IMG/VR virus record: IMGVR_UViG_3300039008_000097
Span: 1-35,199 of that record
Reading direction: 5' to 3' (one strand)
Length of the DNA: 35,199 bases
Source: a virus
Shown here: positions 1,393-35,199 of the stretch, one piece after another
How the letters are laid out: the number at the start of each line of letters is the position of its first letter
How positions within the stretch are numbered: the stretch's first letter is position 1
Position numbers and translations under genes: made by a program
Notes under the pieces: generated by a model
Told to the model about the DNA's origin: nothing
The model's input: the letters and a program-made list of their open reading frames with translations, nothing else
The model's database searches: none

Positions 1393-1508
1393 TTTTTCTT
1401 CCCCTTCTTTGCGTAGTAGGCTTTGACCTGGCTCTTTTTCATGGTTCGCCCGGTAGGGGATTTGTATTTGCCCTTATCTTTACCCTTGGTGATCTTCTTG
1501 TATGGCAT
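1389..1508 (-). CDS. Hypothetical 39-aa lysine-rich protein (not in ORF track)
   Basis: ATG 1508-1506 overlaps the TAA of the upstream gene (TAATG). Its TGA overlaps the next ATG (ATGA). Translation MPYKKITKGKDKGKYKSPTGRTMKKSQVKAYYAKKGKKK. Confidence 0.5.
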   Translation of the reverse strand: MPYKKITKGKDKGKYKSPTGRTMKKSQVKAYYAKKGKKK

Positions 1509-1834
1509 TAGCAGGCCTCTCCTACTGTGAAGGTGGCGTCATTGCCGAAAAATGTTTTGGGGGTGTTATCAATGTAAGTGCCGCACACAGTCCACTCCCC
1601 AGCCTCTGTAAAATCACCAGCCTGCGTTGTAAATTCCATGTAGGTTGATGCCGCGATTGGGCCGAGATCGGGGTCAGTGACAGGTACAGCAGGGGCAGTC
1701 ACCCTGGGATTCGTTATGGTTGTTTCTATGTTTGATGGGGATACAAACTTAAGGGAAAGTCCTGTGTTTCCACTCATATCAAAGCCGGTGGCGTAACGAA
1801 AGACCTTTCCAACTTCGGTTGCTTTTATGCTCAT
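1508..1834 (-). CDS. Hypothetical beta-rich 108-aa protein downstream of the 902-aa repeat protein
   Basis: ORF track. Tightly packed after the 1838..4546 gene. Composition suggests a small beta-sandwich. No family recognised. Confidence 0.7.
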   Translation of the reverse strand: MSIKATEVGKVFRYATGFDMSGNTGLSLKFVSPSNIETTITNPRVTAPAVPVTDPDLGPIAASTYMEFTTQAGDFTEAGEWTVCGTYIDNTPKTFFGNDATFTVGEAC

Positions 1835-1837
1835 TAC

Positions 1838-4546
1838 TCACCCTTCGAGTGCTTGGCCGTCTTTGAAGATTTTACCTCTAACCAGCAGAGGATCGTCGCT
1901 AATATCACCCATAATACCAAAAGTATCGGAAATCTCACCTTCCACCGATTCCCCTGCGCTCAAAATCTTACCCTTAGTGAGCAAAGGAAGATCATTAATT
2001 TCCCCTAGAGCCCCAAAGGATTCGTCAATATCACCAGTAACTGATTGACCAGAAAGGACTATTTTACCCTTTACTCCTTCCCCTGTCTCATCTATCAGAC
2101 CAACGACAGTGAAGGAAAGATTTGCTCTACCAAAAGCGGCCCGCGTTGTATCTCCCGACTCGTTCTGGATTGCAGCAATACTGGGGAAAGGTTGAATTGA
2201 TGCGCTTGTTGCATCACCAACCTCAAACTGATTAGAAAATAGCCGTCTCCCTGTTTCTGCTTCAATGGCAGCACTTTGGCTGTCCCCGGTCTCAAGAAGA
2301 TTTGCAGCTATCTCGTTTATAGCCCTCAGAGACGATGACTGTATATCGCCAAATTCAACCGCATTAGCAACCAGGTTGGATGGTTGAGATAGATCGGCAG
2401 ACTGGGAATCTCCCGTTTCGAGTTGATTTGCAGAGAATTCTGTGACTAATGACAAAAAAGCTGAAACAGAATCACCCCCCTCTACTACTATTGCGGAAAG
2501 GTTCGCCTTCTGCTCAGCCTCAATGGCTGCGAAGGTTATATCACCTTCTTCAAATAGTCCGGACTGGATACTTCCGATAATGGCTAGTTCAGATAATTGG
2601 CTATCACCGCTTTCAGGAAGAAATGAAGATAATTGCGCCTGGGATGCAAAAGAGGATGTTGTAGCATCTCCCAATTCTAACTGAGAGGCCGATACAGACG
2701 CGGTTTGACTCGTGCTGATAGTGGCGGCCGTTAAGTCTCCATCGTCGCTTTGTGAGGCTGACAGCGCCACCAAGACTTCAAGGGATGCCGAGCTACTATC
2801 CCCTACCTCAGATAAAGACGCAAAAACACCAACAACCGAAAGAAGTTGGGCACTACTGGAATCACCTAACTCTAGTTGGCTCGATGATATTTCGGCTGTC
2901 TGAGCGGTGCTAATTGAAGCCAGGGAAATATCACCAGATTCTGACAAACTACCTGACAGTGAGGTAATAACGCCAAAATCAGACAGTGTGGCGTCACCAA
3001 GCTCCTGCGATGCTGCTGAAATAGCTGAGGGAGACTCTATAGCAGCCCCTGTATTGTCCCCTGACTCAGATGTAGCAGAGGACAAAGAAACCAAGGAAGA
3101 TAGAATAGATGACGTTACATCCCCATCTTCACTCTGAGAGGAACTGAGATTGGCCGCACTCCCGGCATCTTCGAGCGTATCAAGGTTTACTCCCCAGAAC
3201 CCCGCCCATCCCGGCTGAACCTCATATTGGCCGCCGTCCTCACCCCCAGGAAGCTCTTGAACACTTGCGCCTATCTCATCATTGGCAGCAAGAGCCACAA
3301 AGCCCATAAAGTTTGCAGACCAGCCAAATGTGTCCTGTGACCCTTGGTTGTTTCGGGCATAATTCCCGTGAAAAACGTCATTATCTTCGGTGCCGTTGAC
3401 CGTGGGGCGTCCTTGTGCAGTCCATCGGCTTGTTGTTGAAACTATCTCCTGGGCAGCCGATATATTGGCACCTAACAGAGCATCCATGGCAACAACTGCA
3501 TCAAACGCTGTATCACTGGCGCGACTGAATGACGCCGTGTCCTCAATAGTGATTCCGGTAGTTCGGGCAATTGTTTGGTCAACTGGGCCTGTGACATTCA
3601 GATCAATTCCGCCTAAATCATCAACACTGTGAAACACTTCGGCGGAATCATTTAATTCAATGACAACCAGTGTGTGGTCGCCAACAGCGGGCGTTGATCC
3701 GTCAATATCAGCGCCGCCCTGCCCTGCACCAACACCATCACCCCTATAGCAGTTGTGCTCAATCGTAACATCTGCCGTGTCAGTCTCGAACAAGTGGGTG
3801 AACATGTTGCCCGATTCGTCATTTGAGCCGTTCCGATAGTAGGCGTATGATTTGGCGGCGTTCTCCTGGGCACCATCAACATCAATACCCATCCAGCGCT
3901 GCGTTCGACCACCCCGGCCCTCATAAAATTGGCTCCCCAAAACCAAATATCGTTTGTTATCGCCAGCAGCCGTCACCACATCACCAGATCGCGTGATGTT
4001 TGCACCTTCCGCAATAGTTGACCAACTGCTGACAATGTTCGGTGTGACTCCGCCCAAAAGCGCCGAATCAGTTGAGGAGTAAAGACCAATATCTGAGTAA
4101 TAGAACGGGATTACATCAATTGAGCTGCGTACCGTGCCGCCAGTAGGTGTGTCAGCGTCCCGCTTCCACTGAAATTGCAGCACCGATGATGCTGACGGTG
4201 AATCTATGAACGCCCAGCAGGATACATAAGACCTGTCCTCTGATGTATCTCGGTTATAACCGCCGGTCGGGCTTCCTGCGAAATTACCACTTCCAGACGT
4301 TTGAACAAACCGTCCCTGCGGGTTGTGACGTCCGTTACTGGTGTCTTCAAATTCAAAACGCCCGATTACTAGAAAGCCATCGGGTAAATCAGAAGATGGG
4401 AGTGTTAAAGAAGATGACGCAGAAGCAAAGGAATAGGCAGAGCTGTCATTCCGCTGCTCTGTAGGGAATAAATTAGCAGGTGCTGTCCAGGCCGTGGTTG
4501 GCAGAATCGCAACAGAACCGCCTGTCCAGCGGCCCAGAACAGCCAT
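1838..4546 (-). CDS. 902-aa protein: about 465-aa N-terminal region plus 16 ExGD repeats of 21/23 aa plus two ~32-aa C-terminal repeats; possible fibre or beta-solenoid protein
   Basis: Long uninterrupted ORF. All plus-strand ORFs across it are antisense shadows of the repeats (recurrent ISP tripeptides). Repeat structure counted directly from the translation. Confidence 0.9.
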   Translation of the reverse strand: MAVLGRWTGGSVAILPTTAWTAPANLFPTEQRNDSSAYSFASASSSLTLPSSDLPDGFLVIGRFEFEDTSNGRHNPQGRFVQTSGSGNFAGSPTGGYNRDTSEDRSYVSCWAFIDSPSASSVLQFQWKRDADTPTGGTVRSSIDVIPFYYSDIGLYSSTDSALLGGVTPNIVSSWSTIAEGANITRSGDVVTAAGDNKRYLVLGSQFYEGRGGRTQRWMGIDVDGAQENAAKSYAYYRNGSNDESGNMFTHLFETDTADVTIEHNCYRGDGVGAGQGGADIDGSTPAVGDHTLVVIELNDSAEVFHSVDDLGGIDLNVTGPVDQTIARTTGITIEDTASFSRASDTAFDAVVAMDALLGANISAAQEIVSTTSRWTAQGRPTVNGTEDNDVFHGNYARNNQGSQDTFGWSANFMGFVALAANDEIGASVQELPGGEDGGQYEVQPGWAGFWGVNLDTLEDAGSAANLSSSQSEDGDVTSSILSSLVSLSSATSESGDNTGAAIESPSAISAASQELGDATLSDFGVITSLSGSLSESGDISLASISTAQTAEISSSQLELGDSSSAQLLSVVGVFASLSEVGDSSSASLEVLVALSASQSDDGDLTAATISTSQTASVSASQLELGDATTSSFASQAQLSSFLPESGDSQLSELAIIGSIQSGLFEEGDITFAAIEAEQKANLSAIVVEGGDSVSAFLSLVTEFSANQLETGDSQSADLSQPSNLVANAVEFGDIQSSSLRAINEIAANLLETGDSQSAAIEAETGRRLFSNQFEVGDATSASIQPFPSIAAIQNESGDTTRAAFGRANLSFTVVGLIDETGEGVKGKIVLSGQSVTGDIDESFGALGEINDLPLLTKGKILSAGESVEGEISDTFGIMGDISDDPLLVRGKIFKDGQALEG
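1841..3151 (-). repeat. Coding tandem-repeat array (63/69-bp units, degenerate at DNA level)
   Basis: GD cores recur at intervals of 21,21,21,23,21,21,23,21,21,23,21,21,21,23,21 residues between aa 475 and 799. Two longer repeats follow: GDIDESFGALGEINDLPLLTKGKILSAGESVE and GEISDTFGIMGDISDDPLLVRGKIFKDGQALEG. Confidence 0.9.
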
Positions 4547-4548
4547 AA

Positions 4549-4950
4549 TTAAACACCGTCGTCATAAGCGGCAGTATTAACCCAGTTGCCGGACATTTGA
4601 ACGGTTTGGCCAGCCACAATAGACGGGTTGTCAATAGTTACACCGTCACCCCCATCAATCAGGCCAGACTCAAGGAATACAGCCCCGGATGTGTTTAGCT
4701 GGTAATGGCCCGCCGTACCTGTGGCATCTGCGGAACTATCAGCAGTGATTGCATTCGATGTGAGAACTCCGGATGCCGCAGCACCAGCCCAACCACCAGC
4801 ATTTCCGGTCAACTGAGCAAGCAATGTGCCTTGTCCACCCGTACCACCATTAGCCCCTGATCTCACCTGAACCTGTGCGGACGAACCACGCTGCGTACTC
4901 AATTCATCCATCAAAGCGTTTCGTAACGCATCTGTTCTACGGATAGTCAT
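4549..4950 (-). CDS. Hypothetical Gly/Ala/Thr-rich 133-aa protein, immediately upstream of the 902-aa gene
   Basis: ORF track. Only a 2-nt gap to the next gene. It resembles small proteins I recall seeing beside phage fibre genes, but I cannot name a family. Confidence 0.7.
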   Translation of the reverse strand: MTIRRTDALRNALMDELSTQRGSSAQVQVRSGANGGTGGQGTLLAQLTGNAGGWAGAAASGVLTSNAITADSSADATGTAGHYQLNTSGAVFLESGLIDGGDGVTIDNPSIVAGQTVQMSGNWVNTAAYDDGV

Positions 4951-8826: not shown

Positions 8827-9123
8827 TTATGTGCCTATCTTATCGAATACATAGCCAGCTTTTCTAAAAAAGGCTTCATGGCTCGCATTTCCAGATATAA
8901 GCTCTAAATGTTCTTCTCTAAATGGGTTGAAAGCAGTTTTGTTAACTCGCTCAAATCTGCGAATAACTCGCAGCCCATCGGTTTTACTCTGCCATTTCTC
9001 ACCAATCCAAACAGGTTCTCTCGCTTTATTAATGGCCTTCATCATTGCATAAGTGTAGTGCTTTGATGGGGGTAAAAAGCACATAACAAGGCGTTCAAAA
9101 AGACTCATTACGCTTCGCTCCAT
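8827..9123 (-). CDS. Hypothetical protein, 98 aa
   Basis: ORF track. AT-rich by eye. Confidence 0.55.
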   Translation of the reverse strand: MERSVMSLFERLVMCFLPPSKHYTYAMMKAINKAREPVWIGEKWQSKTDGLRVIRRFERVNKTAFNPFREEHLELISGNASHEAFFRKAGYVFDKIGT

Positions 9124-9142
9124 TCACGTTTTAACATTTGGG

Positions 9143-9304
9143 TTATAACTCACCACAACCTATAGATTCGTCATACGCCGGCCAGCGCCCAGCCTTTACC
9201 ATTTCGCAGTAGTTATCACGCTGCTTTAACTCATCCTCATAGTCGTTGGCACCCACATAACCATAAGCAACCACAGCAACTATTACAGCAATCAATGTTT
9301 TCAT
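9143..9304 (-). CDS. Small 53-aa protein with N-terminal hydrophobic/signal-like segment; first gene of the left arm (not in ORF track)
   Basis: ATG 9304 with an AGGAG RBS. Translation MKTLIAVIVAVVAYGYVGANDYEDELKQRDNYCEMVKAGRWPAYDESIGCGEL. Confidence 0.5.
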   Translation of the reverse strand: MKTLIAVIVAVVAYGYVGANDYEDELKQRDNYCEMVKAGRWPAYDESIGCGEL

Positions 9305-9329
9305 AACGATCTCCTAGAATCTAAAAACC

Positions 9330-9358
9330 AATCTACACACAAAAAATAGTTGACGCAA
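9330..9358 (-). promoter_or_regulatory. Candidate leftward early promoter
   Basis: The minus strand reads TTGCGT, 17 nt, TAGATT. The -35 overlaps the -35 of the rightward promoter. Confidence 0.35.
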
Positions 9359-9378
9359 GCACTTTATTAAAATAAATT
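9350..9378 (+). promoter_or_regulatory. Candidate rightward early promoter
   Basis: TTGACG (9350-9355), 17 nt, TAAATT (9373-9378), upstream of the Cro-like gene. Confidence 0.4.
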
Positions 9379-9416
9379 AGCAATATTGAAAAACAAACCA
9401 CTAATAGGAATATTCA

Positions 9417-9620
9417 ATGAATATCGGCAAGTCGATAAAAATAGCGTGTGCCCAAAAAAGCATGAAGCAAATTGAGCTGGCGGAATCACTGGGCTTAACC
9501 CCAATAACGGTAAGCCGAATGGCCAACAATAAAGGTGAAGCGTTAAGAAAGGAGACGCTAGAAGAGCTGGCAAATGTTTTTGAAATGCCAGTATCAGAAT
9601 TTATTGCTCTTGGCGAATAG
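9417..9620 (+). CDS. XRE-family HTH regulator, Cro-like
   Basis: 67 aa. The pattern QIELAESLGLTPITVSRMANN is a classic HTH. It is the first gene of the right arm, with an AGGAA RBS. Confidence 0.85.
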   Translation: MNIGKSIKIACAQKSMKQIELAESLGLTPITVSRMANNKGEALRKETLEELANVFEMPVSEFIALGE

Positions 9621-13329: not shown

Positions 13330-13350
13330 GTAGTGGGTCAGTTTGAAATT
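13329..13350. repeat. Terminal inverted repeat next to the transposase 3' end: GGTAGTGGGTCAGTTTGAAATT
   Basis: Exact reverse complement of 16158-16179. Complementarity extends one more base to 13328/16180. Confidence 0.9.
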
Positions 13351-14252
13351 TTCTTATACGGCCCTCTTTTCTTGGATGGAGGAGCCATGGCGTCTATCAG
13401 ACCCACAATGAATTCTAGATCATAGACACTATCAGCAATTCCGGCTTCCATAGCAGGTGTTACCCTCAGCGACTTATGGATACGGCAGAAATTGTAGTAC
13501 ATGTAATGCAGTGATATGGCGTGCATGTGATTTTCAATCTTCTTGCTGAATCCATTGGTCAAGCGTGTAAATCGCCGCATAGACATTCTCATGGTGAGAT
13601 TCTGGCGCTCAACGTAGCTGGTGCTAATGTGCTTGGGATTCGGATCGCCTTTCTTGACTTGTCTCTCGGCCCTTACAAATTCGGATGGTGAATAACGGCG
13701 ATTTGTCTCTTTATCCGTGTAAGGGCCGTATATCTTTATGAGTCGACCATAATCGATGTTGTTGCCAAAACTGTCGTCTATGGCGCTCAGGTAGGGTTGG
13801 TGGCCATCGGTCGACAGTTGGACGCGATTAGCCAGACGAGAGGCCAAATCTTCAATAAACAGCTCAGCGTGCTCTAGGGTGCGATTTCCGACGTGCCAGC
13901 AGGGAACCAGCTTGGTATCAGAGTCAATGGCCACCCAGGTCCAAATATCGCCAGCCTGGTCTTTCTTCTCTTCCGGTACGTTCTTTTGCTTGGCGTACAC
14001 AAACGACCAGATTTCGTCGCATTGCACCCGCTGACAGCTCAGATTGCGCAACACACGGTCCTGATAGCCCAAACAGGCCTCGCCAGCGTCTCTGAGCAAC
14101 TTGCAGACCGTATTCCGGCTGACATCCGCCATACGAGCGGCAGCCCTCAGAGAATTACCCTCAACAAGCATGTGCAGTATCTGGGCGCGTTGGTTGGTAC
14201 TCAATTTATTCATACTGAACATTATGCATGACCGGCCAAGAAATGCAAGCAT
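13338..14252 (-). CDS. IS1-family-like DDE transposase (single ORF)
   Basis: N-terminal HTH (NSLRAAARMADVSRNTVCKLL). The C-terminal block SYVERQNLTMRMSMRRFTRLTNGFSKKIENHMHAISLHYMYYNFCRIHKSL parallels the IS1 InsB motif (IERxNLxxRQ...R.T..FSK....H). The true start may be the Met at residue 11 or 14. Confidence 0.85.
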   Translation of the reverse strand: MLAFLGRSCIMFSMNKLSTNQRAQILHMLVEGNSLRAAARMADVSRNTVCKLLRDAGEACLGYQDRVLRNLSCQRVQCDEIWSFVYAKQKNVPEEKKDQAGDIWTWVAIDSDTKLVPCWHVGNRTLEHAELFIEDLASRLANRVQLSTDGHQPYLSAIDDSFGNNIDYGRLIKIYGPYTDKETNRRYSPSEFVRAERQVKKGDPNPKHISTSYVERQNLTMRMSMRRFTRLTNGFSKKIENHMHAISLHYMYYNFCRIHKSLRVTPAMEAGIADSVYDLEFIVGLIDAMAPPSKKRGPYKKISN

Positions 14253-17905: not shown

Positions 17906-18289
17906 CTAATAAACCCACATTGTTAGATGACCCTCTGGAAGTTCAGGCCGGTAACCAAGGTGGACAAAAGTCTTTGCTACACCAATAGCATTGCAACCAG
18001 CCTCAATCGCCGCCTGAACGACGTTGCCACGGGTTGAGCCTGACACACCAACATCACATCCTTGTTGCTTCTGGTGGTCAGCAGGGGTCGTCCTGTGCAG
18101 CTCATCAGAGTGGTTCGGACAACGACCTCCGGAAGTTACTGGCAATGGGTGGCCAACGATATTTCTCACCTTTTGCACCCGATTCAAATGCTCCTGGGAA
18201 ACACTGCGTTGATCGCAATCAGGATGACCACAGGTACACAGCAGTTTCGGATCGGTGTCGGGATGAAAATTCTGAGTATGTATAATCAT
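17906..18289 (-). CDS. Peptidase M15-like endolysin (VanY / L-Ala-D-Glu peptidase type)
   Basis: PLPVTSGGRCPNHSDE...ADH...CDVGV....FVHLGYRP resembles the SGYRC..HN...H..G.A.D...HvD pattern of M15 peptidases. Located in the lysis position. Confidence 0.65.
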   Translation of the reverse strand: MIIHTQNFHPDTDPKLLCTCGHPDCDQRSVSQEHLNRVQKVRNIVGHPLPVTSGGRCPNHSDELHRTTPADHQKQQGCDVGVSGSTRGNVVQAAIEAGCNAIGVAKTFVHLGYRPELPEGHLTMWVY

Positions 18290-20715
18290 GTACTCTCAAT
18301 ACCAAGGTAGCTCAACCGACATCTATCTGCTGATCTTCCAGCATTTGAGTTCTTTGCCCTAAACTGAAGTTGGACGATCTTTTGGTTATCCCTGTGAAGA
18401 GTGGCAATTTGACCAACCGTTAAATCTAAGGTTTGATCGGAGGTTGATAGCAGTGAAATACTATTAGTTCCGCCATCAACAAATACAGCCTCCAGCTCTG
18501 CGGTTAAGGTTCCTACCGGGGAACCGTTGAAATCAAACTCAATTGACATGGCATAAAAATAATCGAAGGATTGCCTTCTTGGATCAAATACTAGGTCTGA
18601 CCCGAAAGTATCAGCAGCAGAGTCTGGGTTCGCATCTTGCACAATTTTTCTATTTATGGGGCATCTGGTAGCACCAGCATTCGTGGAAAACCCTTTATAA
18701 GCATCAACAAACCCTGATGTTATAGTGGATTTCTCTTTAAGCTGACCACCAAATCCAGCAGAAATCTCTAAACCAACAGGAGCAGTTGCACCAGCTATCA
18801 GCTCAGGAGGACTTATCTTGGTTCCAAATGCACTGCTTTCTCCAGCTCCTGCTCCAAATTTAACTGCAGAAGCAGCAGGCTCACCTGGCAATCCACTAAA
18901 AACACCACCGATTACCACGCAGTCGTCAAAATCAACAGTGCCCACACCGTTAAATAAAAGAGGGTTTCGACATCCGGATCCATAACCGTAGGTTGCACCA
19001 CTAACAGTAACCTGGGCCTCTAAATCTAGAGTCAGCTGAGTTGCACTATCCCTACTTACAACATATGCCTCAAGCGGTGATCCACTTGGGTTTGCCCCCT
19101 CAACAATAAAGTGCTTCCCAACTATAGATGTTGGAAAGTTTGCTGATGCAGAGGAAAACACAGGTGATCCAGCCGAAATCTGCCCATCTGATCCAACAGT
19201 AAAGCCATCATCATTCGTGCTAATTACCTGAACATCGACATCAATATTATCCGATCCCGTAGAACCAAGATAACCATAAAGAGATGGGTATCCGGTATTA
19301 ATTGCACCGGCACCCGATGTTCCGGGATTTAATATATCGCCTCTAACCGACCCATTTCTCCCCATGGTAACAACGGCGCCCTGCAATGCATCTCGGCTAA
19401 TTAGGTGATGGTCAAAGCCCTCTATTCTAGAACCGCCATTAAATTCTTGGTGAACCTCCCTCGAATTCCTAAAACCATAAGTTTCAGTTTTTATGTTTCT
19501 AAAAACTTCGTTTACCGCACTTCCTGCAAATGACACGCCAATACCATTTCCAGCCCCAAGCTTTAAATCATTTATATATCTAGTTCTCGCAATAGCCCTG
19601 TAATTTTCCCTTACAGGCATAGGGGATGTTGAGCCGTCAACCTCTGGAAAGCTAAACTCTATGCCACTTCCTGCGCAATTCTCCGCATCAACATCAATGT
19701 CTACATTTCCGCAATTTCTAAAAAGATAGCCAGACTCTCCAGTGTCTTTAACTGAACCCCTTACCTTTATATCTGTACATCTTAGAAAGAAAACAGCAGA
19801 ATTTGCTGGGCCTGATATGCCAGTCCTTCCGGCAACAGTATTGTATTCGTTCACCACGAGCCCGGCAGCCCCGATCTCTCTAGAGCCTTCCCCTTTTAAA
19901 TCAAAATGACCACTTATAGTAATTCCAATTTTACCATCAGCACTAAACATACCCCTGTTGGCGATGGGGATTGGATTTTCAACTACCCGAACCGCCTCAT
20001 TGACAATATTAATATCAATATTGTTACGTGAAATAGTAACTGACTTCCAAGTCGGAACAGCCTCAACTATATTTGCCTCACTGACGCGCACATGATTGAT
20101 CAATGAGCTATAGCTATCTGTAGAATCAGAACCGGAAATAGCCCCGAATTGCGCTGAATTTGCCGCCCCATCTATTTGAATTAAGGCAACGCTATTGTTC
20201 GACAGCAAATGATCCCCGCGCCCATCAACCGCTTGGTTTGCAAAAATAATATATTTGGCACCTCCTCCATCTCCAGACGAATAGTACCCTTTTGTTGTCG
20301 CAACATTGCCAACATCAAGCGTGGTATCGGCCACCATATCTGCAACGGAATCGTAAACGGCACCACTACGATCTGTTACATCCTCAATAGTGATAACCGC
20401 ACTAGCCGCCCTTCTAGGGTTGTAATAAATCTGGTTCCCGTTCCGGTCGAGAACCTTAATGGAATAATCGCCATCCGTTGATAACTGAACCGGCGATCCA
20501 TTTAGATCGGGCACACCACCAGACCCAGTTCGGATAGGCTGCGCAATAACTACAGAAGAACCATTCTCCTGCAAAGCATTTACCTGCTTCTGGTTTGAGG
20601 GTAGCTCAGGGTCTGTATCTGGATCACCAACGTAAATAGACCCATTGAATATGGGTTGCCCTTTATTGGTGAAGGGGTAGTATCTGTTTTCCAGTTCAAC
20701 TAATAGTTCTGCCAT
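18286..20715 (-). CDS. Tailspike: P22-type head-binding N-terminal domain plus beta-helix body
   Basis: NGSIYVGDPDTDPELPSNQKQVNALQENGSSVVIAQPIRTGSGGVPDLNGSPVQL..YSIKVLDRNGNQIYY parallels P22 gp9 [68 protein letters not shown]. The remainder is Gly/Asn/Ser-rich and typical of a beta-helix. Confidence 0.85.
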   Translation of the reverse strand: MAELLVELENRYYPFTNKGQPIFNGSIYVGDPDTDPELPSNQKQVNALQENGSSVVIAQPIRTGSGGVPDLNGSPVQLSTDGDYSIKVLDRNGNQIYYNPRRAASAVITIEDVTDRSGAVYDSVADMVADTTLDVGNVATTKGYYSSGDGGGAKYIIFANQAVDGRGDHLLSNNSVALIQIDGAANSAQFGAISGSDSTDSYSSLINHVRVSEANIVEAVPTWKSVTISRNNIDINIVNEAVRVVENPIPIANRGMFSADGKIGITISGHFDLKGEGSREIGAAGLVVNEYNTVAGRTGISGPANSAVFFLRCTDIKVRGSVKDTGESGYLFRNCGNVDIDVDAENCAGSGIEFSFPEVDGSTSPMPVRENYRAIARTRYINDLKLGAGNGIGVSFAGSAVNEVFRNIKTETYGFRNSREVHQEFNGGSRIEGFDHHLISRDALQGAVVTMGRNGSVRGDILNPGTSGAGAINTGYPSLYGYLGSTGSDNIDVDVQVISTNDDGFTVGSDGQISAGSPVFSSASANFPTSIVGKHFIVEGANPSGSPLEAYVVSRDSATQLTLDLEAQVTVSGATYGYGSGCRNPLLFNGVGTVDFDDCVVIGGVFSGLPGEPAASAVKFGAGAGESSAFGTKISPPELIAGATAPVGLEISAGFGGQLKEKSTITSGFVDAYKGFSTNAGATRCPINRKIVQDANPDSAADTFGSDLVFDPRRQSFDYFYAMSIEFDFNGSPVGTLTAELEAVFVDGGTNSISLLSTSDQTLDLTVGQIATLHRDNQKIVQLQFRAKNSNAGRSADRCRLSYLGIEST

Positions 20716-34105: not shown

Positions 34106-35199
34106 TATCGTCTACCCATGGCTTTTATTGGTTTTGGCATGTAAACAACCTGCTTACGGTTAAGGTCGCCACGCCTAACAGCAAAACGCCGCATCATATA
34201 GGCGTAACGGATGGCGTCTAGCATATCATCTCTTGTCTTGACAATCTTTCCTTTCTCATCCCTATGGTATTGACGCCATTCATCCATTAGGTCTATTTGG
34301 CCCTTGAATATCTTTAATCTTCCAGTTCTGGCGCGGTCAAGCAACTCATAAATTCCATTCTCTACAGAATTGCCGCCACCTTTCATACCCCCTTTACCAT
34401 CAGGGATTTGAGGCCATGTGGCATGCTCTGGCAGCATTCTAAAGCCAGCGGTTGCGTAATGATCTTTTTGTTGGGCAGTCACATCACGACCCTTCTCATG
34501 CATCAGTCCATCATGGGGCCACGCCACTGGTACATTATCACTCCATGCCTTCACGGCTCCCCATGCGTCATTAGCCGACACCTTACTAGCCTTCCATGAG
34601 TTAGTGACATAAACCACATCGGCATCCAGGTCTATCGCTAGTTGAACGTGGGCTTGTGGGTGGTCGTAGCCAAAATCCATACCGTTGATAACCAGCCAAT
34701 GAGCAGGGATATCAAAACGATCACACAACACCATTTCATCGCCAATGTCATAAATTCTGCCATGGCCAAGCATTGGTACGCCTTTAGTCCGCATATCGCG
34801 CTGGTGCTCTGGGTACTGAAGCAATAAGCGTTCACGCTTCTCAGGCGTCATGTGGGGCGCATCATCCCAGCCTTTCATCATAAAGAATTGATCTGGACTG
34901 GGGTCATCCATGAACTTTATAACCAGATCGGTGCGGCCATTCTCTGGGGTGAAGGTGTAAATGATCCTCCCCCCTTTCCCTTTATCTCCATTGATTGTCC
35001 GGGTCAATACCTGGGGACGGATGGTCTGATCTCTGGGCTCCTCGTCAATATGAACCCAATCAACCACGTCGCCCATAATGGCGTGTTGGCCTTGGGAGTA
35101 AGACCAAAACTGAATAACTGATGTTCCGTTGGTGCCGTGCCTAACCCTAACTGTTCTCATGGCATTTGGGGTTCCAGTAGCAGACTCCCAGCTTACAAT
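34105..35199 (-). CDS. terL: Terminase large subunit, C-terminal part (ATPase Walker B plus nuclease half)
   Basis: ORF-track protein contains DWVHIDEEP (Walker B-like) and conserved terminase-like blocks. The frame remains open upstream of the listed ATG to the window end and continues at base 142 after removing the 141-bp overlap. The joined gene is about 491 codons. It sits next to terS and the portal gene. Confidence 0.9.
   Translation of the reverse strand: MVSWESATGTPNAMRTVRVRHGTNGTSVIQFWSYSQGQHAIMGDVVDWVHIDEEPRDQTIRPQVLTRTINGDKGKGGRIIYTFTPENGRTDLVIKFMDDPSPDQFFMMKGWDDAPHMTPEKRERLLLQYPEHQRDMRTKGVPMLGHGRIYDIGDEMVLCDRFDIPAHWLVINGMDFGYDHPQAHVQLAIDLDADVVYVTNSWKASKVSANDAWGAVKAWSDNVPVAWPHDGLMHEKGRDVTAQQKDHYATAGFRMLPEHATWPQIPDGKGGMKGGGNSVENGIYELLDRARTGRLKIFKGQIDLMDEWRQYHRDEKGKIVKTRDDMLDAIRYAYMMRRFAVRRGDLNRKQVVYMPKPIKAMGRR
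35059..35199. repeat. Terminal direct repeat, right copy (identical to 1..141)
   Basis: Same comparison as the left copy. Most likely an assembly overlap of a circular contig. Confidence 0.95.

Follow-up and report, generated by a model that had tools for sequence, protein, structure and literature searches.

Knobs of the TNF/C1q type and repetitive β-stalks are already-known parts of phage fibres. A binding module is likewise joined to a stalk in Hoc of phage T4, Dec of phage L and gp8.5 of phi29, all of which are dispensable virion proteins that project outward; Hoc is held by its C-terminal part and has its N-terminal domains at the distal end, and Dec combines a three-fold module and a β-helical stalk. 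In C1q and BclA the stalk precedes the head. The protein considered here, 902 amino acids (aa) in length, is encoded by a complete coding sequence on the minus strand (1838..4546) of the IMG/VR virus record IMGVR_UViG_3300039008_000097, the 35,199 nucleotides (nt) of which are referred to below as the window. Its chain runs from an N-terminal domain, predicted to form a three-lobed knob, through a short linker into a stalk of 16 tandem repeats, and ends in a C-terminal module with a 32-aa repeat. The explanation that we prefer, and to which we give somewhat less than an even chance, is that a P22-like podovirus carries this protein on its virion as an accessory fibre or adhesin, with the knob distal and borne on a folded, β-rich spacer stalk, and that the protein belongs to an undescribed modular family.

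The knob (residues 1-460; 3167..4546, minus strand) is delimited by AlphaFold2 (AF2) modelling, Foldseek comparison and the alignment of homologues. AF2 was run on the full-length protein with an alignment of 70 homologues, and on residues 456-902 alone with a clean four-sequence alignment. In the full-length model residues 1-460 are all-β, with a predicted local distance difference test (pLDDT) score above 90 throughout, which sinks below 50 at about residue 464. The best Foldseek match of the knob in the PDB is 4zch, an engineered single-chain APRIL-BAFF-BAFF heterotrimer (E 2e-11, 487 columns, template-modelling (TM) score 0.68 on the target), and the next rows are single TNF/C1q-type domains: 4-1BBL, cerebellin (Cbln1), EDA, C1QL, adiponectin, TNF, Bacillus ExsFA/BxpB and the spike knob of phage phi812. 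Each third of residues 1-460 aligns with such single domains at a probability of 1.0 and a TM score on the target of 0.55-0.71, over ~155-165 columns each. Foldseek matches among predicted viral structures, the family member itself set aside, include a "C1q domain-containing protein" of 425 aa from an uncultured phage (TM 0.75), as well as minor tail or collagen-repeat proteins.

Residues 1-460 are predicted from this model to be a natural single-chain pseudo-trimer of three TNF/C1q-like jelly rolls. The modelled domains are ten-stranded and of the length (~130-160 residues) typical of the TNF/C1q-like superfamily, the trimers of which are built from separate chains, whereas here all three domains lie in one chain. 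Because of this, and because the best match is itself the engineered single-chain 4zch, the predicted knob is probably a structural analogue or variant rather than a standard member of that superfamily. Internal triplication of the knob at the sequence level was tried as a candidate and dropped, the three sub-domains having no mutual similarity detectable by profile-profile comparison. Over the 70 homologues 22 residues are invariant, and the knob ends in a family-wide motif, ..WGxNLDTLE. The 902-aa protein has no Pfam match at E <= 1, C1q and TNF models included, and none in PHROGs or among PDB sequences; the profile of the 70 homologues finds only chance matches in the PDB, to low-complexity eukaryotic proteins and within the repeat part.

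The knob is followed by a linker (residues 461-472, AGSAANLSSSQS; 3131..3166, minus strand), placed by the drop in pLDDT, and then by the array proper (residues 473-816; 2099..3130, minus strand), delimited by core positions, position profile and shuffles. Its 16 tandem units, 12 of 21 residues and four of 23, each begin with an [ED]xGD core, at residues 473, 494, 515, 536, 559, 580, 601, 624, 645, 666, 689, 710, 731, 752, 775 and 796. Upon recounting, the 16 cores and their spacings (21,21,21,23,21,21,23,21,21,23,21,21,21,23,21) match exactly those given in the original prediction, a first reading of the bare sequence. In 20,000 shuffles of residues 456-835, the GD dipeptide, which occurs 16 times in the native order, is seen 1.95 times on average and at most 8 times, and no shuffle yields more than two spacings equal to 21 or 23, against 15 observed. 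The same 380 residues carry a net charge of -45 and consist of 21% S, 13% A, 10% L, 8% G and 8% E, which bears out their description as Ser/Ala/Leu/Glu-rich. The unit consensus reads E-x-G-D-(S/T)-x-S-A-x-L-x-x-h-h-x-L-x-A-x-(L/Q)-x.

The 23-residue units, which had been called a subfamily of their own, do have a separate profile, with Ala8, Ile10, a two-residue insertion in mid-unit, and Ala16/Ile18/Ala20. The companion proposal of a 65-residue super-period, with a 21+21+23 triplet as the true unit, survives only in the order of the unit lengths. As a sequence unit it was rejected: identity between units at lag 3 (0.348) is not above that at lag 1 (0.346) or lag 4 (0.381), and the 23-mers are irregularly placed in the three closest homologues (P0002-P0004). 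Since the units are ~52% identical in DNA and ~35% in protein, and since Tandem Repeats Finder reports no array of 63- or 69-nt period, the array is, as had been supposed, an old structure under selection and not a recent product of slippage.

The C-terminal module (residues 817-902; 1841..2098, minus strand) is built on a repeat of a different type, again as originally proposed. It holds 2.4 copies of a 32-aa repeat, the period being set by GKIVLSG.. at residue 827, GKILSAG.. at 859 and GKIFKDG.. at 891, and these repeats contain ..DLPLL or ..DDPLL. The module may be an attachment end or a tip; the C-terminal ends of P0002-P0004 are unlike it. Homologue searches with residues 796-902 and with residues 459-902 returned no matches, but both also missed P0001, an entry of the public protein collection that is identical to the 902-aa protein, and such negatives are therefore unreliable for short or low-complexity queries.

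A position profile of the ExGD type, drawn from 54 units of four proteins, including 39 21-mers, shows what is kept from unit to unit. Glu1, Gly3 and Asp4 are nearly invariant, being present in 12 of the 12 21-mers of the 902-aa protein and in all 39 across the four proteins. Positions 10 and 16 are hydrophobic, either aliphatic or aromatic, in 39 of 39 21-mers. Small residues occupy positions 8 and 18, hydrophobic ones prevail at 12-14, and Gln prevails at positions 6 and 20 of the homologues' ExGD units. In the 23-mers the two halves (8-10-12 and 16-18-20) are retained, with two extra residues between them, so that the mid-unit addition preserves the strand register. The profile points to a pair of short strands in each unit, with a tolerant turn at the centre and another turn at ExGD, and the AF2 assignment for the array consists of strands only, about two per unit and 6-10 residues each. 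An α-helical or coiled-coil reading, in which 21 residues would make three heptads, was rejected, the hydrophobic moment peaking near 125-130 and 170 degrees and not near 100; the invariant Gly of each unit, the 2.7 Gly+Pro per 22 residues found family-wide, and the AF2 strands also speak against it.

Whether such strands stack into a β-solenoid is a separate matter, and here the original prediction fares unevenly. Its β-type character stands, given two AF2 strands per unit, hydrophobic positions 10 and 16, and a unit compatible with a rung of ~22 residues; the monomer model, a check that it had proposed, is all-β, and by assignment neither helical nor disordered. What does not emerge is a confident solenoid, the model having a pLDDT of about 35 and no significant Foldseek match (best E 1.6). 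The weak top rows for this low-confidence model are all β-solenoids, namely GlmU/LpxA, the Sf6 and P22 tailspikes, CsgA, tapirin and Awp14; the tailspikes appear at E 3.2-3.7, which is not significant, and CsgA (8c50) at E 6.1. A phmmer search of the array against the PDB gave no match. A β-solenoid is nonetheless plausible, being compatible with all of the observations.

One could instead read the array as part of a homotrimeric fibre shaft of the triple β-helix or triple β-spiral kind, in which three chains intertwine and each fibre bears three knobs. Phage fibres are almost always trimers, and strands modelled at very low confidence in AF2 monomer runs, as here, are typical of obligate trimeric fibre segments; the charged coiled-coil-like ends of some family members could, moreover, drive oligomerisation. 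Yet with three jelly rolls in one chain a trimer is no longer needed, and a thin shaft with three bulky knobs of 460 residues at one end would be awkward. Classical shafts repeat every ~15 residues (adenovirus fibre) or every 8 (T4 gp5C), unlike the 21/23 of this array. We consider a trimeric shaft quite unlikely; in the preferred explanation the stalk is a putative single chain.

The wider family places the ExGD repeat in perspective. A metagenome protein collection holds 191 homologues, most of which cover ~51% of the query, that is, the first ~460 residues, at 50-70% identity. The family is small: among 1.84 billion cluster representatives, scanned exhaustively with HMMER, only 253 clusters (at 50% identity) contain the knob, nearly all of them spanning the whole domain. 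Repeats were delimited in all 216 family sequences in hand: 147 have an array behind the knob, 35 an extension without clear repeat, and 34 no C-terminal extension. The modal unit length is 22 in 68 arrays, 21 in 25, 20 in 20, 24 in 15, 23 in 14 and 14 in five, with a median of 16 units per array (range 4-39). Mixed unit lengths are common, and the most frequent deviation from the modal length is +2 residues. The unit sequences themselves are unrelated between members (for example, TLTANAPQAVTTELNFxELPSAxL, ESASEVTAPxLGQxHxLxADDV, ETLHGHQVDGSGFTQGHNLAPG, ADSGSYAWTGQDAxL.. and DERDAEIHGxDT), and the ExGD type is limited to three other proteins, P0002-P0004. From P0003, which lacks exactly 44 residues (21+23) of P0002, it follows that whole units are gained and lost.

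The full architecture by which this family is defined here is a ~455-residue N-terminal domain ending in ..WGxNLDTLE and then tandem units of 20-24 residues. The 902-aa protein has this architecture, being 50-70% identical to members over residues 1-460, with an array inside the family's range of unit length and number. Family arrays are rich in A/T/S/G/V and nearly free of K, R and M (about 2% K+R). In this family it is the ~22-residue period, and not the sequence, that is conserved in the stalk, and the ExGD array is one local variant; this point, like the pseudo-trimeric form of the predicted knob, had escaped the first reading. Metagenome-assembled genome (MAG) contigs with the knob gene are assigned to Hyphomicrobiales, Stappiaceae, Gammaproteobacteria, Flavobacteriales and Bacteroidota, and marine or aquatic sources of related sequences are indicated by a Tara Oceans virus name and by coral and marine MAGs.

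These family-wide data bear on a further possibility, one to which the original prediction had pointed, that of a calcium-stabilised or ice-binding solenoid. Here a Glu/Asp ladder, made by the stacking of E-x-G-D turns, would chelate Ca2+ between rungs, by analogy with RTX β-rolls or the ice-binding adhesin of Marinomonas. The near-invariance of Glu1, Gly3 and Asp4 speaks for it, as does the charge of the array, the stacked turns of which would need counter-ions, and the aquatic origin of related sequences would suit it. Against these points, there is no match to the RTX nonapeptide or to any calcium-binding repeat family, the period is 21/23 rather than 9 or 19, no TxT/TxN face is conserved, and 95% of family arrays are net negative whatever their motif. 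Because most members have arrays without ExGD, calcium chelation by this motif cannot be the general principle of the family, and we regard such a solenoid as highly improbable.

In the explanation that we prefer, one chain would make a three-lobed TNF/C1q-like knob (residues 1-460) and then a folded, β-rich and strongly acidic stalk of 16 stacked units. Each unit would contribute two short strands, with Ala8-Leu10-Val12 and Val14-Leu16-Ala18 as its inward positions, and the strands would be joined by a short central turn, the site of the two extra residues of the 23-mers, and by the E-x-G-D turn. The stalk would act as a spacer of adjustable length, in which units come and go and the sequence drifts freely while the ~22-residue period is kept. 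The knob, sometimes with lectin-like modules in front, would be the distal binding end, and the variable C-terminus would be the end fitted to the particle of each phage. Lectin-type modules ahead of the knob are seen in P0011 (Laminin_G_3) and P0162 (F5/8 type C), both above Pfam thresholds. The knob is favoured as the distal end because it is conserved across unrelated virion backgrounds and because such binding-type modules are added on its N-terminal side.

The genome around the gene bears on the accessory status of the protein. Positions 1-141 of the window recur as a direct terminal repeat of 141 bp at 35059-35199, and the large terminase open reading frame (ORF) is continuous over the repeat junction, at ~501 aa after removal of the duplicated part; for both reasons the window represents an entire phage genome, 35,058 bases long when the repeat is counted once. 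Its gene set is P22-like, comprising small and large terminase, portal, scaffold, coat, Ad3 and Hc3 connector proteins, a needle-like protein, ejection proteins, tailspike and hub proteins. The β-helices of tailspikes lack sequence periodicity, and tailspikes had served the original prediction as a standard of comparison for the array protein. That comparison fails here, the P22-type tailspike of this genome (809 aa) being the product of a separate gene (18286-20715), recognised by its head-binding domain PF09008 (E 1e-14) and by PHROG tail spike families; a Pfam search finds no such P22 gp9-type domain in the 902-aa protein. By its gene content, then, the P22-type adsorption set is complete without the 902-aa protein, and it is for this reason that we call the latter accessory.

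A late, structural role is suggested by the place of the gene, immediately upstream of terS and in the same orientation, and by the virion and packaging genes that neighbour its homologues in ~30 other loci. These loci are non-redundant, and PHROG annotation within three genes of the homologue yields terminase, portal, head decoration, virion structural protein and tail fibre families, with one DNA methyltransferase as the sole exception. The position of the homologue varies: in a Stappiaceae prophage (L001/L007) it has the portal gene on one side and the scaffold and coat genes on the other, and elsewhere it lies between the small and large terminase genes or beside tail-fibre-like and lysis genes. 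The ORF immediately upstream also differs by phage, belonging to phrog_3758, phrog_644 or phrog_240, the last annotated as "head protein".

In the window this upstream ORF encodes 133 aa (4549..4950, minus strand), is separated from the 902-aa gene by a 2-nt gap, and is a distant member of a family of small structural proteins of the virion. A 133-aa ORF at the same position in prophage L001 shares 35% identity with it (E 5e-16). The L001 ORF in turn has matches in phrog_3758 ("virion structural protein", E 4e-36) and in PDB 44nx_B ("Structural protein", E 1.3e-7); the ORF of the window itself has no direct match to 44nx_B. The latter, a solved structure, is gp07 of the Pseudomonas podovirus KPP25 (9001-9444 of its record, L045), called a structural protein in the phage record and encoded within a tail-side structural block, after the Hc3 tail-hub gene and before large structural proteins. 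Among five translated KPP25 proteins, gp04-gp08, which include the large neighbours gp05 and gp06, no repeats were found, and the literature found on KPP25 does not mention gp07. In Pan4, Seuss and cluster N mycobacteriophages the small, phrog_3758-type gene comes after tail genes. The upstream 133-aa protein is likely to be a partner of the 902-aa protein.

Several observations weigh against an accessory fibre with a distal knob and a folded stalk. The array has a pLDDT of 30-45 in the full-length AF2 model, and the run on residues 456-902 gave a mean pLDDT of 35 and a predicted TM score (pTM) of 0.28, the clean alignment having failed to raise confidence; such very low values weaken the case for any one fold of the array, and even for its folding as a monomer. 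Hydrophobic alternation in the arrays is weak across the family, and the stalk must be dispensable for the role of the knob, since 34 members consist of a knob with almost no C-terminal extension. Presence of the 902-aa protein on the virion is something we infer, and no homologue was found among cultured phages by DNA and tblastn searches of INPHARED (50,697 records). Finally, the usual polarity of phage fibres is the opposite one, a conserved N-terminal anchor being followed by a variable C-terminal binder.

That usual polarity would be restored in a reversed, Dec-like orientation, with the knob seated on the capsid, perhaps where there is three-fold or quasi-three-fold symmetry, or else on an adaptor, for which the small upstream protein is a candidate, and the stalk and C-terminus directed outward to carry specificity. 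This is a serious rival. Knobs at 50-70% identity with unrelated C-termini follow the rule of conserved anchor and variable binder, a three-lobed module would suit a three-fold site, and the spike sites of the P22-type tail are already occupied by the tailspike; the upstream ORF varies by phage as an adaptor would, and knob-only members could still bind the particle. On the other hand, the knob is highly conserved despite different terminase families and both podovirus-like and long-tail-fibre contexts, which is unexpected for a surface that must fit a capsid, and the lectin-like modules on its N-terminal side place the N-terminus at a free end. On balance we judge the reversed orientation unlikely.

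A more radical departure would remove the protein from the virion altogether, as a moron-type product made late and released at lysis or displayed on the cell surface (an adhesin, a matrix-binding protein or an exclusion factor), or would reduce the array to a flexible, largely unfolded tether. The gene does occupy different genome positions, as a mobile cassette might, and the absence from cultured phages and the low AF2 confidence can be read in the same direction. The 902-aa sequence, however, has on inspection no signal peptide-like N-terminus, the annotated neighbours are virion or packaging genes apart from the one methyltransferase, and the partner family is annotated as structural. The conserved hydrophobic positions of the array, together with its strictly kept period, argue against a disordered tether. 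Either form of this idea strikes us as extremely improbable, and we retain the accessory adhesin with its predicted distal knob.

The C-terminal ends of the family deserve separate mention. Among the 181 family sequences of at least 560 residues, 30 close with an acidic run and then a short helix, hydrophobic or amphipathic in character (for example, ..DDEAILAVLNEFMRMVA and ..EEEEVALILLAS), often after a charged coiled-coil-like stretch; these are P0005, P0006, P0007, P0060, P0066, P0078, P0089 and 23 others. The acidic run and helix may be a docking peptide. The 902-aa protein lacks such an ending. The short knob-only members P0013, P0080 and P0041 end in short motifs (..KVWNGSSWEIKPIK.., ..VDRVYLGTTEVDRVYLG..) which may correspond to motifs of phage fibre C-termini.

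A broader formulation can be put more boldly: that a single-chain head of three TNF/C1q domains, borne on a single-chain β-solenoid stalk with rung length fixed by the fold, rung sequence and number left free, and ExGD turns held by divalent cations, forms a cassette that moves between marine phages of different morphotypes and hosts, provides them with a common ligand-binding head held at a tunable distance from the particle, and represents an unrecognised class of surface protein, a natural parallel to engineered single-chain TNF. So complete a picture is possible but doubtful. Should the preferred explanation hold, it would define a compact, widespread and unannotated accessory adhesin of uncultured, probably marine, phages. 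The knob would be a natural single-chain counterpart of TNF/C1q trimers, and its ligand might tell how these phages find cells or particles. The stalk would be a rare case of a family in which the repeat period is conserved and the sequence is not, and hence a natural experiment on the folding requirements of a β-repeat stalk. A name and a domain model would become available for proteins now missed by Pfam and PHROGs. The ExGD repeat alone is less remarkable than the family that it reveals.

Other features of the neighbourhood lie to one side of these questions. A 108-aa ORF with no database match (1508..1834, minus strand) begins 3 nt after the stop codon of the 902-aa gene. In other loci a β-rich ORF of ~100 aa often follows the homologue, and those in L024 and L039 match phrog_1084 / phrog_1627; the ORF of the window has no sequence link to them. 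Of ~40 loci, only three have the upstream 133-aa ORF again, and not one has the 108-aa ORF that lies downstream. The DNA around the cassette, scanned for promoters and terminators, gave sites no more numerous than in shuffled sequence. Further off, a 304-aa ORF (13338-14252, minus strand) has a weak transposase-family match (phrog_720, E 3.5e-6) and lies on the opposite strand within rightward replication and Nin-type genes; it may be an insertion. Small Cys-rich ORFs of 60-86 aa stand directly upstream of the homologue in four loci (L004 7289-7519, L023 4277-4537, L025 6507-6743 and L042 6061-6243) and have a common C-terminal motif, CPCxxCxxK...C...CxCCSxxCT, without a PHROG match. Large ORFs adjoining the homologue in L025 (9460-12264) and L033 (3379-5190) have N-termini that by eye resemble family-2 glycosyltransferases, which raises the question of glycosylated Ser/Thr-rich stalks.

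Set against described systems, then, the protein combines known elements in an order of its own. Each third of the predicted knob resembles the subunits of TNF/C1q-like trimers (TNF ligands, C1q, cerebellin, Bacillus BclA/ExsFA/BxpB, the central spike knob of phi812), as the whole resembles 4zch, and a head joined to a repetitive stalk is shared with C1q and BclA. Unlike these trimers, the knob has its three jelly rolls in one polypeptide, diverged beyond detectable similarity and without a Pfam C1q/TNF match; unlike C1q and BclA, the stalk comes after the head and is not collagen-like. With β-solenoids having rungs of 19-23 residues (the right-handed parallel β-helices of tailspikes and pectate lyases, CsgA, the calcium-bound solenoid of the Marinomonas adhesin) the array shares a unit of 21-23 residues, short strands, small or aliphatic inward positions and, in its homologues, Gln6 and Gln20; it differs from single-chain β-solenoids in having no significant sequence or structure match, model confidence being too low for a fold call. 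Curli CsgA has a similar unit length and two strands per unit, but its Ser-x5-Gln-x-Gly-x-Gly-Asn-x-Ala-x3-Gln consensus is absent here, as is any Pfam match. The RTX β-roll differs in its GGxGxDxUx nonapeptides, which are lacking in an array of period 21/23 with one E-x-G-D per unit and no Pfam match, and ice-binding and ice-nucleation solenoids differ in the TxT/TxN pair, which is not conserved in the position profile.

With Hoc, Dec and gp8.5 the likeness is one of putative design, the P22-like genome here already having a full tail apparatus; for all that, the 902-aa protein is related to them neither in sequence nor in fold, has no domain of the Ig-like or OB-fold type and matches no PHROG, and a capsid location would be putative. 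What our comparison contributes, beyond the already-known parts of phage fibres, is the single-chain form of the knob, a family absent from Pfam, PHROGs and the searchable literature, where searches found no description of it, and the rule that the period is kept and the sequence is free. A parallel in gene order is offered by the Pseudanabaena phage Pan4, which has a similar cassette of a 133-aa phrog_3758-type gene, large proteins and an ORF of ~100 aa. Two genes after its small-protein homologue, Pan4 gp26 (L043 9337-11229, 630 aa) carries a C-terminal array of ~20-residue units, ASGxLPLTGSAxGAVRVxG. It differs from the 902-aa protein in having a glycine-rich head without a TNF-like knob and a different repeat sequence, so that the same kind of stalk is here carried by a different head.

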